Of a DNA stretch of 64,000 bases, positions 10,706 to 27,154 are shown piece by piece. A program made the translations under genes and the position numbers. The DNA is from Candidatus Latescibacterota bacterium. Its GTDB lineage: Bacteria > Latescibacterota > UBA2968. Under the pieces are notes generated by a model. That model saw only the letters and a program-made list of their open reading frames with translations, was not told the origin of the DNA and made no database searches. Location: assembly GCA_965116885.1 (NCBI GenBank), contig OZ220741.1, forward strand, positions 1,824,001 to 1,888,000. The letters are read 5' to 3'. Each line of letters opens with the position of its first letter. Within the stretch, counting starts at the first letter, position 1.

Positions 10706-12190
10706 GTGAATAAAATTCTATCTCACAAGACGCTATCAGCCCTCTGGTCGTTCGGGAGACACAGGGAAAAGCCTGTAGATTTTGAACATGTCCACCTCCC
10801 GGACGATGGCAAGGAGTTTCTAAAGCCGCCTCTGAAGATGTTGCTTCGAGAACTGGAGGAAGCGTCCGCGTCTCAACAGAAGGAGGCTTTAGCTCACTTT
10901 CGGATGGGGGAAGATAGATTCAAAAACTGGCAATATCGGGATGCTGCTGAGTCCTATCAGGCATCCCATGAAGTATTTGAGAGCTTGTCGGCACTTCTGG
11001 CCCAAGGAGTAGCTTTGATGATGGTGTCGGAATTGAAGGAAGCGGCTGAAGTATTTGAAAAGGGGAGGAACCTGTCACAGATGCGGAAGGTTGATCGGTT
11101 GGAGGCGGTTTTCGGGATCAATTTGGGACAGGTATGCAACGATCTTGGCGAGCCAAACCGGTCCCAGAAAGCCCTGAAAGGAGCAGGAGATCTCTGTAGG
11201 GAGATTGAGGATGCCGCGCTGGAGGCAATGGCACTCCGACATCTGGGTATGATATTCTTAGCACAGGCTTTATATAATGAAGCCCTGACGTGTTGTGAAG
11301 AAGCCATTCAGATTTCTGAGGAGATAAAAGATAAAATAAGCGTTGGCCATATCTTGTGTAATAAGGCTATTATCCTTGTTTCCAAAGGAAATCTTAATGA
11401 CGCCGAGAAGATTTTTCTACAAGGACTTGTGTTGGGGCGGGAGTTGGAAGATCCATATATACAGGGGCGAATCTATACAAATTTGGCAAGCCTTGATCTG
11501 ATCCGTGGAAGAGTTCAGGAGGCCTCTTCTGCTTTGGAACGAGCACTCGATATTCATCGCAGCATAGACTATCGCCAGGGTGAAGCCAGAAACCTTGGAG
11601 TACTTGCAGTAATACAGATAGCTAAGGGTAATCCCGATATGGGACACCATATATTTAAAAGTGCGGTTGAGATGGATCGCCAGCTCGAGTACCGGCGAGG
11701 GGAAATAAGAGAACTATTCACGATGGCGAAGGCTCAACTTCGAGATGGTCCAGATGATAAGACATTACAGCTATTTCAAGCTGTTTACGATCTCGCCAAA
11801 AGGATAAATCATAGACATATTCAGGTTGAGATTTCCGTGATATTGGCCTCATTGATGTCTGACATTTCGACGGAAAGACGGATTTCTATATTGAAAGATA
11901 ATATGGAGCTAAGCAAGTCCATAAATAGCCCGATGTTACAGATACGAATTTCCAACGCTCTTGGTGGTCTCTATATATTTTTTGGATCCTTTGATAAAGC
12001 AATATCTTGTTTTCAGAAAGCTGTTAATGACAGTCGAAAGATCGGTAACTTGATTGAGGAAGCAAAGTCGCTTGTGAGCCTTTCCCATATCCATGATCAG
12101 ATGGGAAAAACAGAACTCGCAGCAGAGAACATGAGCATCGCTCAAGCATTGTTTCAAAGTCAGACTATCAATTTTGCCATAATTGAGTAG
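10706..12190 (+). CDS. tetratricopeptide repeat protein
   Basis: repeated NLG/NLA..G...EA...F..AL helical motifs over most of the length. Confidence 0.8.
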   Translation: MNKILSHKTLSALWSFGRHREKPVDFEHVHLPDDGKEFLKPPLKMLLRELEEASASQQKEALAHFRMGEDRFKNWQYRDAAESYQASHEVFESLSALLAQGVALMMVSELKEAAEVFEKGRNLSQMRKVDRLEAVFGINLGQVCNDLGEPNRSQKALKGAGDLCREIEDAALEAMALRHLGMIFLAQALYNEALTCCEEAIQISEEIKDKISVGHILCNKAIILVSKGNLNDAEKIFLQGLVLGRELEDPYIQGRIYTNLASLDLIRGRVQEASSALERALDIHRSIDYRQGEARNLGVLAVIQIAKGNPDMGHHIFKSAVEMDRQLEYRRGEIRELFTMAKAQLRDGPDDKTLQLFQAVYDLAKRINHRHIQVEISVILASLMSDISTERRISILKDNMELSKSINSPMLQIRISNALGGLYIFFGSFDKAISCFQKAVNDSRKIGNLIEEAKSLVSLSHIHDQMGKTELAAENMSIAQALFQSQTINFAIIE

Positions 12191-12270
12191 ATATTGAAAT
12201 GACTTTTTTGAATGTGCTGTAGCACTACTACTGAGATATTTTCTATTCTATTAGAAAGGGGGGATAATCT

Positions 12271-12525
12271 ATGGACCTGAAAAAAGTAGCTATAATCAAA
12301 CCGGCTCGCGGCAATTATGATGCCGGGACGATCTATACCTATCATTCCGAGACTTGGGAATGTGTTACTGGTGTATTAGGAGATGCGTTATTGGGCAGTG
12401 GCGTTGGTGCAGGCGTAGCCATAGCCGGTAGAGCCGCTTCTCTAATATCGGGCCCTGTAGGTTGGGGAATATTCGCAGTCACAGTTGTTGGCGGAGCCCT
12501 AAACGGCTACGCAGATCATTGCTAA
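12271..12525 (+). CDS. bacteriocin-like precursor peptide (class II/Blp-like core)
   Basis: strong RBS (GAAAGGGGG); 84 aa; Gly/Ala-rich hydrophobic core with GxxxG motifs bracketed by Cys31 and C-terminal Cys84. Confidence 0.75.
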   Translation: MDLKKVAIIKPARGNYDAGTIYTYHSETWECVTGVLGDALLGSGVGAGVAIAGRAASLISGPVGWGIFAVTVVGGALNGYADHC

Positions 12526-24049: not shown

Positions 24050-25249
24050 GTGGCGACATCTTGGTCGAATAAGCGCAAGGCACTCCTCGGTGCAGGTGGG
24101 CTGATCATTGTGGTTGCGATGGTGGTGCTCAATTTGCAACAAGAGAGTAAAACCGAGCGTTCGACTCAGGATGCCGAGACTTTGCCCGTGCGCCGGGGGG
24201 CTGTCGTTGAACAACTGAAGGAAACCGGGCGTATTGAATTTGTTCGCACTGTGGAGGTCAAGTCAACGGTATCGGGTGAAATTGTGCATTTGTTTGCCGA
24301 GGCGGGAGATGCGGTGTCCGAAGGCGATATGCTGGCGATTATTCGACCGGATCCCAACCAGACGCTTCAGCTTTACAACAAGAGGGCGGCGGTTGAGCGG
24401 GCGCGTATTGACCTCGATCGGGTGCGTAAGGATTTGGCGCGCAAAGAAGCGTTAAAAAAACGGAATTTGATTGCCGAAGAAGAAATTGAGCGGATTCGGG
24501 ATCAGTTTGAAAAGGCATTAAATGCTTATCAACTGGCGCAACTCGAATTGGAAACGCTGGTGAAGCGGTCGAATATTCAGCAATCGAAAGGGCGTTCGTC
24601 TTCGGCGCAACTGGACAATGTGCGGGTGCTGGCTCCCGCCTCGGGTATTGTGATTGCACGTCCCGTAGAAATCGGCGAGGTGGTGGTTTCGGGTATTCTT
24701 TCTACGGTGACGGGTACCAAACTGTTTGAAATTGGCGATCCGAGCCTGATGATGGTGAAAGCCTATATCAGCGAAGTGGATGTGGGAAGGCTGGCACCGG
24801 GGCAGGCTGTTCATATTATTGCAGATGCTTATCCGGATACGACGTATCAGGGCGAGGTGTATCGCATTGCACCTGTGGGGCAAATCAGGCAGGGTAGCAA
24901 TATCGTGTCGTTTGAAACCGAAATCCGCGTTCTGGATCGCGAGCCGAGACTGCGCCAGGGTATGTCATGCGATGTGGATATTGTTTTTGCCCGGCGCGAT
25001 TCCGCGCTTTATTTGCCCCTTGAGGCCGTGTATGAAGATTTTGGAGACGATGTTCGGGAAGGCGATAAAAAAGGGATTCAAGGACGATTTGTCGTCTTTG
25101 TGAAAGAAGATACTTTTGTCGTACGTGAGATTCAGGTGGGTTTGAAGTCAGATGTCCGCGTGGAAGTTTTGTCGGGTGTGACAAGTGCAGATTCGGTTGC
25201 TGCAGATGCTGAAAAATTGTTCAAGGAGCGGGCAAAGGAAAGCGATTGA
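24050..25249 (+). CDS. MacA-like efflux periplasmic adaptor
   Basis: N-terminal TM, VKS.VSG.I, coiled coil, APASG.V, E.DVG.L..GQ, LR.GMS. Confidence 0.88.
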   Translation: MATSWSNKRKALLGAGGLIIVVAMVVLNLQQESKTERSTQDAETLPVRRGAVVEQLKETGRIEFVRTVEVKSTVSGEIVHLFAEAGDAVSEGDMLAIIRPDPNQTLQLYNKRAAVERARIDLDRVRKDLARKEALKKRNLIAEEEIERIRDQFEKALNAYQLAQLELETLVKRSNIQQSKGRSSSAQLDNVRVLAPASGIVIARPVEIGEVVVSGILSTVTGTKLFEIGDPSLMMVKAYISEVDVGRLAPGQAVHIIADAYPDTTYQGEVYRIAPVGQIRQGSNIVSFETEIRVLDREPRLRQGMSCDVDIVFARRDSALYLPLEAVYEDFGDDVREGDKKGIQGRFVVFVKEDTFVVREIQVGLKSDVRVEVLSGVTSADSVAADAEKLFKERAKESD

Positions 25250-26475
25250 TGAATGCGCTCGATTTGTTTTTGGTCGGCCTCTCCCAATTGCAGGCAAACG
25301 CGCTGCGGTCGCTGTTGACGATATTGGGCATTACGATTGGGGTGGGGGCAGTGATCGGGGTTGTATCGATTGGAGAGGGTCTGCGGCGCAATATTGTGTC
25401 GCAGTTTTCACAGGTGGGCGGTGCCAATCTGGTGATCGTTCAGCCGCCTCGAACCTATGAGGTCAAAGACGGACGGCGGGTGCCGCGCGCCTGGCGGGAG
25501 TATTTGACGGCACGGGATTTAGCCGCGCTTGAAGGGGAAGTCAATCACATCCAGGCAGCGTATCCCCTGGTGGGATGGAATACGCAGGTGCGCTATCAAA
25601 AAGCATCGGCAACTGGCGAGGTGCAGGGTACGTTGCCGGGGTATCACCAGGCGATGGATTGGGAACTGGATCAGGGGCGGTTTTTGTCGAATTGGGATGT
25701 GAAGACCTGGCGGCGCGTGTGTGTGATTGGAGATAAGATCGCCGAAGAGCTTTTCGGAGAGATGAATCCCGTGACCCGGGAAGTGAAGTTAAATGGTGAA
25801 CGCTATACAGTTATCGGGGTGATGAAACCCCGATTGTTATTTGGCCGCGATTGGGGTCGCCAGATTGTCGTGCCAGTGACCACATTGCAAAAGCGCGTGG
25901 TGGGCAACGATTATTACAGTGTGATTTTTGTGTATGTGGAAAATGCCGCACATGTGAAGTCCGTCACGCAGAATATTGAGAAAGTGTTGAATCGGTTGCA
26001 CGTACACGGAGATGCTTTTCGCGTGTCGAGCGGCGAGAGTGTTTTGGAAAATGTAGATCAGGTAACGCTGATTATGAAATTGGTGGCCGGGGGCATTGCG
26101 GGCATTTCTCTATTGGTGGGTGGGATTGGCATTATGAATATTATGCTGGTGTCGGTAACAGAGCGCACGCGAGAAATCGGCATCCGCAAGGCCGTAGGTG
26201 CTAAGCGCGTGCATATTCTCATTCAGTTTATCATCGAGTCGGCTGTGTTGAGCCTGTTCGGCGGTTTGATCGGCATTTTGTGCGGGCTTGGGTTCGGGTT
26301 TGGCATTTCCTATTTGATTGAATATTATTCTGAGGCGGAATTTCCCAGCGTGGTTTCGTGGAGCGCAGTGATGCTGGCAGTTGCTGTTTCAGGGGGTATT
26401 GGCGTGTTTTTTGGCGTTTATCCGGCAGCGCGGGCATCTGGGCTGGATCCTGTGGAGGCGTTGCGCTATGAGTAA
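25246..26475 (+). CDS. MacB/FtsX-family ABC permease
   Basis: [57 protein letters not shown]. Confidence 0.92.
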
Positions 26476-27154
26476 GGTGCAGATCCAAATTGACGCGGTT
26501 CGGAAAATTTATCAGATGGGAAGTGAAACCGTTTACGCGCTGCGGGATATTTCGTTTTCTGTGTTTCAAAACGAGTATCTGGCAATTATGGGGCCGTCTG
26601 GATCGGGGAAATCGACGTTGCTCAATATCTTGGGGTGTTTGGATACGCCTTCGAAAGGTCGATATATTTTAGATGGTGAAGCCGTTAGTGAGATGAAGGG
26701 AGATGCGCTGGCGGATGTGCGCAATCGGAAGATCGGATTTGTTTTTCAGACGTTCAATTTACTCAGCCGGGCGACGGCTCTACAGAATGTGGAGTTGCCG
26801 CTGATTTATGCGGGTCTGTCCAGACGCCGCCGCAGGGAAAGGGCCAGAGCCACTCTGGAGCGCGTTGGGTTGGCAGATCGAATGACGCATCGGCCAAATG
26901 AGTTGTCGGGCGGGCAGCGTCAGCGCGTTGCTATTGCGCGGGCACTGGTGAACGATCCGGCGATTCTGCTGGCAGACGAACCCACCGGGAATCTGGATAC
27001 GCGAACGGGTGAAGAGATACTCTCTACGTTTGAAGACCTTCACCAACAGGGGCAAACAGTTCTGGTGGTGACCCATGAAGAAGATGTGGCGCGGCGTACC
27101 TGGCGCGTTGTACGGCTTCGAGATGGACGCATTGAAAGCGATGCACCTCCATGA
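26468..27154 (+). CDS. MacB/LolD-family ABC ATPase
   Basis: [35 protein letters not shown]. Confidence 0.92.

Follow-up and report, generated by a model that had tools for sequence, protein, structure and literature searches.

The closest described systems to the one examined here are the TIGR04066 clusters of Firmicutes, in which a TIGR04066 protein, the TIGR04069 protein related to acyl carrier proteins (ACPs), a subtilisin-like protease and the radical S-adenosylmethionine (SAM) enzyme CcpM accompany a Cys-rich precursor of the CLI_3235 type. For the SacP23 cluster of Paenibacillus polymyxa, the accessible part of the paper (PMC10731318) describes a precursor of the CLI_3235 type together with a radical SAM maturase, a protein of TIGR04066, a relative of ACPs, a subtilisin-like protease and an ATP-binding cassette (ABC) transporter. 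According to the same part, the product is active, its mass was measured as 3404 Da where 4455 Da had been predicted, and its N-terminus is blocked against Edman degradation; the role guessed at for the TIGR04066 and ACP-related proteins is 'immunity' (PMC10731318). We analysed a stretch of 64,000 nucleotides (the window) from a Candidatus Latescibacterota bacterium, spanning positions 1,824,001 to 1,888,000 of contig OZ220741.1 in assembly GCA_965116885.1, and found a gene cluster that is a radical-SAM-less relative of these TIGR04066/ACP/subtilisin 'peptide maturation' clusters. It encodes an 84-residue precursor peptide and a fusion of an S8 protease with DUF1611, and it belongs to a real, large and uncharacterised family that resembles the clusters for peptides that ribosomes synthesize and that are then post-translationally modified (RiPPs). 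Coordinates are window positions unless another locus or the genome is named, and all cluster genes lie on the + strand unless stated.

The likeness to the TIGR04066 clusters lies in a DUF1611/TIGR04066-type protein, a carrier protein, an S8 protease and an ABC transporter set around a leader-bearing, Cys-containing peptide; the ACP gene adjoins, and the S8 domain is here fused to DUF1611. The same S8–DUF1611 fusion occurs with an ACP-like open reading frame (ORF) and a radical SAM gene in a related locus from Erysipelotrichaceae (L068). Unlike the Firmicutes clusters, the window has no radical SAM/SPASM maturase of the CcpM type (radical SAM genes occur in 5 of 61 related loci), its protease and DUF1611 are one protein, its leader and cores differ, its TIGR04066 score stays below the cut-off (136 vs 200), and it adds a glycosyltransferase, a CtaG-fold protein, TlpA and MauE proteins, and pumps. 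New here are the radical-SAM-free, fused form of S8–DUF1611, a common leader on dozens of unrelated cores, Gly-rich precursors with two Cys residues, a swappable gene block and the expansion of the system in Latescibacterota.

The initial annotation had called this a gene set that matches no described RiPP class. That is an overstatement: the association of TIGR04066, ACP and subtilisin had been catalogued before, and a bacteriocin comes from one such cluster; the DUF1611 part is related to TIGR04066 below the threshold, and the Firmicutes clusters, with SacP23 as far as the accessible part of that paper describes it (PMC10731318), are comparable. The gene content it gave is borne out: every gene it listed is present on the + strand in the ORF listing and the Pfam and NCBIfam scans, within a co-directional run from 10706 to 27154. 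It was also right that enzymes of known classes are missing, as no LanB/C/M, YcaO, radical SAM, non-ribosomal peptide synthetase (NRPS) or polyketide synthase (PKS) family matched among the 20 ORFs scanned against Pfam and NCBIfam, nor did the class-defining enzymes of lanthipeptides, sactipeptides, YcaO-type RiPPs or NRPS/PKS hybrids. The extent it gave, 10706 to 27154, holds for this run of genes, but the cluster reaches further upstream; a 140-residue ORF at 16602–17024, two AraC-type response regulators and a decayed module at 7042–9424 were absent from it. Neither Pfam nor NCBIfam gave a match for the 84-residue peptide, two ORFs with multiple transmembrane (TM) segments, the 140-residue ORF or a 344-residue ORF.

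The 84-residue ORF (12271..12525; translation, alignment and leader model) follows a strong purine-rich ribosome-binding site and carries Cys31, a terminal Cys84 and a Gly/Ala-rich, hydrophobic C-terminal half. Among 5.8 billion proteins searched, it has 11 relatives (53–76% identity) without a name or Pfam family, and four further divergent peptides occupy the same position in loci L009, L010, L012 and L014. BLASTP of the peptide against the ORFs of the related loci (E 1e-5) gave no match; the locus relatives were found through their position and a leader hidden Markov model (HMM). In an alignment of 16 sequences (A2), M1, K10, R13, Y24, E27, G79 and C84 are invariant and C31 is nearly so. 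The first ~27 residues are almost identical in the 12 closer members, and the ~45 residues between the conserved ends are hypervariable and Gly/Ala-rich. A conserved leader, here ~24–30 residues, a conserved Cys pair and a hypervariable core make up the pattern expected of leader plus core. By this pattern the ORF represents a genuine precursor family and behaves as the precursor that the initial annotation had taken it for. No cleavage motif of the Gly-Gly type is conserved at the leader end in the 16 sequences; the conserved end is Ala-Tyr-x-x-Glu.

The leader is of a wider type, as five other ORF families beside S8–DUF1611 genes also begin with a basic stretch containing Lys-Pro-x-Arg (KPxR), then Ala-Tyr ('AY..E') and acidic residues. 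A first leader HMM, built from 26 ORFs of 6 families, found 3 of 106,062 six-frame segments of the bacterium's own genome at E<1e-7, one of which (7949–8470) lay outside the training set, and 25 ORFs in 22 of the 61 related loci at E≤0.01. A second-round HMM found 32 ORFs in 27 of the 61 loci (E≤0.01), all 32 on the strand of the S8–DUF1611 gene; in the own genome it returned 2 of the 106,062 segments at E≤1, both beside S8–DUF1611 loci. Contigs from four RNA libraries, labelled sponge metagenome or metagenome, match 12271–12351. Other contigs match 12370–12599, identical over all 230 bases, as well as stretches of the three genes that follow; together they leave parts of 11800–14800 uncovered and do not establish transcription, expression level or operon structure. 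A 317-base RNA contig of run X16 matches the leader-coding part, 12271–12351, over 81 bases with 4 differences, and its next 236 bases are unlike the window. It reads like a variant precursor, from a sponge metatranscriptome library, in which this leader heads a different core.

The S8 protease–DUF1611_N/DUF1611 fusion (18306..20258; Pfam, NCBIfam) has a Pfam peptidase S8 domain (2.1e-30) whose catalytic triad, D25, H64 and S208, is invariant in 38 sequences. Its best NCBIfam match is QhpE (158 bits, 2e-46), with the cut-off of 165 not reached. In the same 38 sequences the P-loop of the DUF1611 part is conserved. Residues 277–640 match TIGR04066, 'peptide maturation system protein', with 136.4 bits (E 1.2e-39; cut-off 200), and relatives in L068 and L058 score 73 and 81 bits against this family. 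In the protein atlas, the clusters nearest to the DUF1611 part consist of Bacillota TIGR04066/DUF1611 proteins. The part also matches PDB 2g0t, a hypothetical protein (5.7e-5), and weakly the NCBIfam family DgcN (5.7e-5), which is the only pointer toward an N-acyltransferase function. The adjacent ACP (20286..20561; Pfam PF00550 at 9.4e-9, above cut-off, and NCBIfam) keeps its phosphopantetheine-site residue, Ser42, in 35 of 35 relatives. No TM segment is predicted in the fusion, the ACP, the glycosyltransferase, the 344-residue protein or the TPR protein, which points to cytoplasmic action.

Complex prediction hints weakly at binding between the fusion and the precursor. The score was 0.40 (runs 0.40, 0.01 and 0.45) and that of the best control 0.00, with the partner at pLDDT 34–39 and the runs agreeing in at least 20% of contacts; no interface was obtained. 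Of the 157 solved complexes in the calibration of this score, 116 reached the mark, as did 2 of 215 mismatches; both of these mismatches and only 18 of the solved complexes did so with 0.60 or less. Our literature search, in which DUF1611 and the TIGR numbers came up in few papers, found no paper that ties DUF1611 to a RiPP, and none that gives a function to DUF1611 or the TIGR families; by their titles, the DUF1611 papers it did find concern Dickeya phages and Dickeya cell length. Searches on DgcN, DgcA and Clo7bot/CcpM returned off-topic papers only, and a search on BtrH with acyl carrier protein and RiPP returned only a genome-description preprint.

We compared the window with 61 related loci from a scan of one genome per species; 12 of the 61 are shorter than 15 kb, and the accessory families were identified by Pfam scans of representative members. 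Nearly all of the loci are from metagenome-assembled genomes of Candidatus Latescibacterota, often several to a genome (seven of those fetched come from one related genome record), and a small number bear the labels Gemmatimonadota, Bacteroidetes, Kryptoniota, Erysipelotrichaceae or Clostridia. S8–DUF1611 is present in 55 of the 61, and the ACP and the ABC exporter are each present in 47. These three are the conserved core of the system, as judged by gene content. A BtrH-like protein of either of two families is found in 37 loci, followed by an HlyD-type adaptor (18), a CAAX-type protein (17), a rhodanese-like protein (15), a thioredoxin-like protein (14), a GNAT protein (12), a glycosyltransferase (9), and MauE and TlpA (8 each). 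The precursor goes with S8–DUF1611, ACP and exporter in many loci, and the glycosyltransferase is an accessory.

The genome of the window is a single contig of 5.56 Mb with 4 S8–DUF1611 paralogues, one of them interrupted by an in-frame TGA. Sequencing runs labelled as sponge and coral metagenomes contain the stretch, and the host is a sponge-associated Latescibacterota; the available part of a sponge-metagenome preprint (10.1101/2024.01.09.574914) does not mention this system. The three further loci of this genome lie around genome positions 1765851, 5478436 and 1939646 (L006, L007 and L008). Their accessory sets are HlyD, TPR, CAAX, GNAT and BtrH-like proteins in L006, a glycosyltransferase and HlyD in L007, and ACP, thioredoxin-like, rhodanese and MauE proteins in L008; the copy with the in-frame TGA is that at 1939646. 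Neither leader HMM finds a precursor near the second and third of these further loci (paralogous loci C and D). Elsewhere, L041, L043, L044, L048 and others have tandem lipoprotein-like genes with a 6-bladed beta-propeller (DUF5128-like) beside S8–DUF1611, and these loci carry Cys-rich, Trp/Asp-rich precursors. In L068, positions 577–855 encode an AgrD-like autoinducer peptide (TIGR04223, 25.4 bits vs a cut-off of 19), which together with a multi-TM ORF lies just upstream of the radical SAM, ACP-like and S8–DUF1611 genes.

Close relatives of the window differ in one block. The S8–DUF1611 of L009 is 92% identical to that of the window, and the DNA of the two loci is 83% identical up to 10656, shows no similarity over 10657–14827 and is 89–92% identical over 14828–27158. 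The dissimilar stretch holds the gene for the TPR protein (10706..12190; Pfam TPR_12 and TPR_MalT), which is the first of the swappable block, and those for the peptide, two membrane proteins and an ATPase. Against L010 the similarity breaks inside the TPR gene, at 11133. In L014 the swapped block is shared at 70–80%, although the S8–DUF1611 region is only 69% identical. The breaks against L009 and L010, together with the sharing in L014, indicate that the precursor and the membrane proteins beside it are exchanged together among maturation and export blocks that are otherwise conserved. At the DNA level, the swap looks like the diversification of toxin and immunity genes in bacteriocin loci.

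The two membrane proteins (12724–13416 and 13311–14105) each have at least six hydrophobic segments and no Pfam match, and they co-vary with the precursor; we regard them as candidate permease or immunity components. With the adjoining DrrA-like ABC ATPase (14035..14865; TIGR01188, 5e-65, below cut-off) they probably form an ABC-2-type self-protection pump.

The ACP gene is followed by genes for a GT-B type glycosyltransferase of the GT28 C-terminal family (GT28_C; 20584..21714; Pfam, NCBIfam) and a 344-residue protein with a predicted fold like that of CtaG, CcbD and BtrH (21720..22754). The label 'BtrH-like' given to the latter in the initial annotation is partly right. It agrees with the fold and with its family, in which 17 of 26 relatives match BtrH_N at E≤0.1 (best 2.8e-6, below cut-off), but the window protein has no direct Pfam match and the catalytic Cys is absent. 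The AlphaFold2 (AF2) model, with a pLDDT of 65.8, suggests a papain-like N-domain and a helical C-domain. With this model, AziU3/U2, CtaG and CcbD were the sole Foldseek matches at E<0.01 (E from 9e-5), and VIA gave Z 14.2 both for CcbD (277 residues aligned at rmsd 3.9) and for AziU3/U2, and Z ~13 for CtaG. PDB sequence searches with the protein and its family profile returned chance-level matches only. The accessible part of a paper on CtaG (PMC12865890) describes CtaG, BtrH and AsbE as papain-like ligases that use a Cys-His-Asp triad, with Cys11 as the nucleophile of CtaG, to turn acyl groups on carrier proteins into amides; it adds that CcbD/BtrH-fold members often acylate amino sugars and that AziU3/U2 has the same fold as CtaG and a different chemistry.

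The 344-residue protein is modelled with the same two-domain fold as CtaG, CcbD, BtrH and AsbE, its gene is adjacent to that of an ACP, and in hhalign its His128 and Asp136 pair with a His and an Asp that are invariant in a true BtrH_N family. That family is a second group of ORFs, found in 14 loci, with bona fide BtrH_N and DUF4872 domains (45.7 bits, cut-off 29.7) and an invariant Cys18. In contrast to the four ligases, the window family does not conserve the nucleophilic Cys, and the acceptor here would be a ribosomal peptide; AziU3/U2, with its different chemistry, is an equally good structural match. Hence, the model supports the fold of the protein and does not support the canonical mechanism. 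The glycosyltransferase and BtrH-like genes seem to travel together from cluster to cluster. In 6 of the 61 related loci, a relative spans half or more of the length of the window glycosyltransferase. In L041, L044 and L048 the glycosyltransferase and the 344-residue protein are 71–78% identical to those of the window, S8–DUF1611 and ACP are 41–56% identical, and the gene order differs. L010 has, at 13415–15134, an insert of ~1.7 kb between the glycosyltransferase and BtrH-like genes relative to the window and L009.

The reading we favour, which we hold to be probable with considerable reserve, is that the probable genomic island around the cluster encodes a leader-guided, bacteriocin-like (microcin-like) peptide system that combines S8 cleavage, ACP-dependent capping, export, a disulfide and protection by pumps. 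The N-terminal leader of the 84-residue precursor, and probably also that of the ORF at 7949–8470, would guide it to the cytoplasmic S8–DUF1611 protein. The S8 domain would then remove the leader, probably after the conserved Tyr24, to give a peptide of ~60 residues; an aromatic residue at P1 and a hydrophobic one at P4 fit the preferences of subtilisins. Next, the P-loop domain of DUF1611 and the adjacent holo-ACP would place an ACP-borne acyl group on the peptide, possibly with a sugar, and the most likely acyl site would be the N-terminus that the cut sets free ('cleave and cap'). Help in this step would probably come from the CtaG/BtrH-fold protein and the glycosyltransferase, and the acyl group could be sugar-linked, since members of this fold such as CcbD and BtrH often acylate amino sugars. 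The product would leave through the peptidase-less ABC exporter and its 140-residue accessory. Outside the cytoplasm, TlpA and MauE/DoxX would close a Cys31–Cys84 disulfide that ties together the ends of the ~60-residue peptide, and the ABC-2-like pump beside the precursor and the Yip1–MacAB-like pump would protect the producer from a presumed antimicrobial activity.

Several observations weigh against this reading. Both parts of the fusion score below curated cut-offs (QhpE 158 vs 165; TIGR04066 136 vs 200), and the complex score of 0.40 falls in a range where wrong passes outnumber right ones. The AF2 model of the 344-residue protein is mediocre, with residues 8–87 below pLDDT 50; no Cys is conserved in the first 45 residues of the 25 window-family sequences that have the N-terminus, where, by eye, His18 occupies the place of Cys18 in the true BtrH_N relatives; and the hhalign alignment covers only columns 96–333 (E 3.6e-4, probability 37%). 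Of the 61 loci, only 9 have a glycosyltransferase and 37 a BtrH-like protein, which implies that neither is part of a universal step. As for the leader, 24 of the 25 matches of the first HMM in related loci are its own training sequences, the second-round HMM misses the window's own 84-residue peptide at E≤1, and with it 34 of the 61 loci have no match at E≤0.01; eight of these 34 show leader-like ORFs before Cys-rich cores, by eye only. In two loci, L011 and L013, S8–DUF1611 and ACP are present but no precursor can be seen within 10 kb. Length and acidity set many cores apart from bacteriocins, several of them having 100–150 residues. Finally, nothing in the cluster identifies the acyl group or the route by which the ACP is loaded, and the chemistry is inferred throughout.

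A more ambitious version, tentative and in our judgement rather doubtful, takes S8–DUF1611 with the ACP as a generic 'cleave-and-cap' machine that would recognise one type of leader, cut after Ala-Tyr and immediately transfer an ACP-borne acyl group to the freed amine, defining a new class of acylated small proteins and ribosomal peptides. An equally doubtful part of it is that some loci may route the acyl group through a sugar added by the glycosyltransferase, with the CtaG-fold protein as helper. If this were true, sponge-associated Latescibacterota would hold dozens of unrelated cores of the class, which would have relatives in Gemmatimonadota, Bacteroidota and the CcpM clusters of Firmicutes, and 'cleave-and-cap' would explain the blocked N-terminus of SacP23. 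The reading that we favour, if right, would give DUF1611/TIGR04066 proteins and their carrier proteins a first testable role, and the leader motif could be used to mine many unrelated peptide cores. An uncultured phylum of sponge symbionts would then invest heavily in such peptides, with 4 loci in this genome, and a swappable precursor/immunity block beside a conserved maturation and export block would be a 'plug-and-play' design for peptide engineering.

Class II microcins and bacteriocins of Gram-negatives, such as microcin V and siderophore-microcins like MccE492, are leader-bearing, Gly-rich peptides with an ABC exporter, an adaptor and immunity genes, and MccE492 illustrates that such peptides can carry a glycosylated non-peptide group. 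The window recalls them in its hydrophobic, Gly-rich leader peptide, C-terminal Cys pair, exporter and immunity-like genes; it differs in having neither a double-glycine leader nor a C39 peptidase, in its predicted S8 leader cleavage and in its other tailoring enzymes. The product could be an unmodified bacteriocin of the class II or microcin-like kind, whose leader is cut by S8 and which is secreted by the exporter with at most a disulfide, and DUF1611, ACP, glycosyltransferase and BtrH-like protein would act on a lipid or an envelope glycoconjugate or have a structural or chaperone role. The Gly-rich, hydrophobic core and terminal Cys pair resemble those of unmodified Gly-rich bacteriocins, the glycosyltransferase (9/61) and BtrH-like protein (37/61) are dispensable in many loci, and the latter has no nucleophile Cys. 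We nevertheless judge this fairly unlikely: the protease–DUF1611 fusion is kept in 55 of 61 loci and an ACP with its invariant Ser in 47, and their persistence over very different cores and phyla is hard to explain unless they act on the peptide.

The length of several cores (100–150 residues) and their acidic character, unlike classic bacteriocins, would also suit products that are no toxins at all, namely exported signals or envelope and membrane components. The TPR protein and the AraC-type response regulators would then sense or control them, and the pumps would serve for export and not for immunity; AraC-type response regulators do lie beside many loci (in 13 of 61, as judged from similarity to the first regulator), and the TPR protein travels with the precursor. 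We think this distinctly unlikely. Close relatives differ in the precursor/multi-TM block while the machinery is conserved, several paralogous loci occur per genome, and typical neighbours in bacteriocin loci are frequent here (a CAAX-type protein in 17 of 61 loci, ABC-2-like and MacAB-like pumps), all of which fits toxin/immunity diversification better.

The carrier protein could also hold the peptide itself. The P-loop of DUF1611 would load the peptide carboxylate onto the ACP thiol, and the CtaG-like ligase would form an amide with the amine that the S8 protease frees to give a circular or branched peptide. According to the accessible part of the CtaG paper, enzymes of this type form amides between carrier-bound partners (PMC12865890). 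The P-loop is conserved, and no other enzyme matched in the cluster by Pfam or NCBIfam would make or load a separate acyl group. We know of no precedent for such a route and consider it very unlikely, as 24 of the 61 loci have no CtaG-like protein, this protein has no catalytic Cys, the terminal Cys pair offers a simpler ring closure, and cores of 100–150 residues are unlikely substrates.

In quinohemoprotein amine dehydrogenase maturation, QhpE and QhpF act in the order of leader removal and then export. The window shares with them a cytoplasmic subtilisin-like protease and an ABC exporter without a peptidase domain; it differs in that no equivalents of QhpA, B, C, D or G were found among the scanned ORFs, the cargo is hypervariable and the score falls short (158 vs 165). 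That the cluster matures a small cysteine-cross-linked enzyme subunit, as QhpE, QhpF, MauE and MauD do for quinoprotein amine dehydrogenases, is scarcely credible: QhpE is the best NCBIfam match of the S8 domain (2e-46) and MauE, an AraC-type regulator with a weak QhpR match and a peptidase-less ABC exporter are present, but the 20 ORFs include no dehydrogenase subunits, radical SAM QhpD or flavoprotein, and hypervariable cores of many unrelated types misfit a conserved enzyme subunit.

To return to the bacteriocin-like peptide system that we favour, the genes downstream of the swappable block fit its export and redox steps. The membrane domain of the ABC exporter (14881..16605; Pfam ABC_membrane 23–289, ABC_tran 349–498) starts at residue 23 and no C39 peptidase domain was matched in Pfam or NCBIfam, confirming that the exporter is peptidase-less. 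The 140-residue protein (16602..17024), with one N-terminal TM segment, keeps its place right behind the exporter, at 85% identity in L009 and L010, and is a possible export accessory. Then come a membrane-anchored TlpA/ResA-like thiol-disulfide oxidoreductase (17031..17585; Pfam, NCBIfam, TM prediction) and a Yip1/YknW-like membrane protein (17592..18293; Pfam, NCBIfam), and beyond the 344-residue protein a MauE/DoxX membrane protein (22738..23175; Pfam). TM prediction places TlpA, MauE, the Yip1 proteins and the 140-residue ORF in the membrane. An AviCys-type or CAAX-type modification of the terminal Cys was set aside, as the window has no flavoprotein decarboxylase or prenyl-type enzyme.

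The last genes of the cluster encode, in this order, a second Yip1 protein (23150–24049) and a MacA-like adaptor, a MacB-like permease and an ATPase (24050–27154), all identified by Pfam and NCBIfam. YknWXYZ of Bacillus subtilis protects against the SDP toxin, and the set at 23150–27154 has the same components: a Yip1-family protein, a membrane-fusion protein, an FtsX/MacB-type permease and an ATPase. YknW_fam is the only NCBIfam match of both Yip1 proteins. Unlike YknWXYZ, these score below its cut-off (71.1 and 89.5 bits vs 110), the ATPase comes last, and the host is diderm-like (MlaE and MlaD genes). This four-part set is probably a self-protection or efflux pump in a YknWXYZ-like arrangement.

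The cluster lies beside a tRNA-Pro (GGG) gene (6345..6421; ARAGORN). The tRNA-Pro 3'-end repeats that the initial annotation placed at its borders are real, and we counted three copies, all on the + strand. The reference copy is the true tRNA end, comprising the 3' half and a downstream hairpin (6391–6480; repeat families D2, D6 and D12); the second, partial copy of the 3' end and hairpin is at 9415–9508 (D2 and D12); and the third, at 84%, is at 27267–27356 (D2 and D6) and would mark the right end of the probable island. The GC content is 0.39–0.49 inside and ~0.51–0.53 in the flanks, which carry commonplace genes (for a sigma-70 factor, MlaE/MlaD and periplasmic binding proteins). Among the ORFs listed for the region, part of them scanned against Pfam, none looked like an integrase. 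Most likely, one genomic island, or two in tandem, occupies ~6.4–27.4 kb at tRNA-Pro. A response regulator with an AraC-type helix-turn-helix (9958..10659; Pfam Response_reg, HTH_18, HTH_AraC) precedes the TPR gene. A second AraC-type response regulator (27441..28142; + strand, Pfam) stands just beyond the island, and its 5' end repeats that of the first (DNA repeat D7).

Between the first two repeat copies, 7042–9424 is, as its sequence reads, a second, partly decayed cluster with an intact precursor ORF. It begins with a fragment of an ABC exporter gene (7042..7200; tblastn; DNA repeat D3, 91%) that matches residues 105–160 of the intact exporter at 84% amino acid identity. Two small zinc-ribbon (CxxC...CxxC) membrane proteins follow (7229–7567 and 7494–7925; translations, weak TIGR04104 match). 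Their family, f33, adjoins the f34-type precursor family in L029, L045, L046, L054 and L061, and they are candidates for an immunity or accessory role beside the second precursor. This leader-bearing, precursor-like ORF (7949..8470; leader HMM and translation) matches the first leader HMM at E=9.4e-10 and the second at E=6.3e-10. Its true start is likely an internal Met near 8009, and its core of ~150 residues is unrelated to the 84-residue peptide. Beyond it are two more zinc-ribbon membrane proteins, of ORF family f32 (8527–8835 and 8807–9175), and then remnants of an S8–DUF1611 N-terminus (residues 8–39) and a BtrH-like C-terminus (residues 233–281) at 9224..9410 (tblastn), which read as a deleted second enzyme module. 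L045, from a related genome, keeps this module intact, with flanks shared at ~84–90% DNA identity. The precursor at 7949–8470 may now rely on the enzymes of the neighbouring cluster.

Outside the island, 28354–30930 on the - strand encodes an 858-residue protein with two periplasmic-binding-protein modules. An internal DNA duplication in this gene (28339–28638 vs 29395–29694, 76%) reflects the tandem domain repeat.

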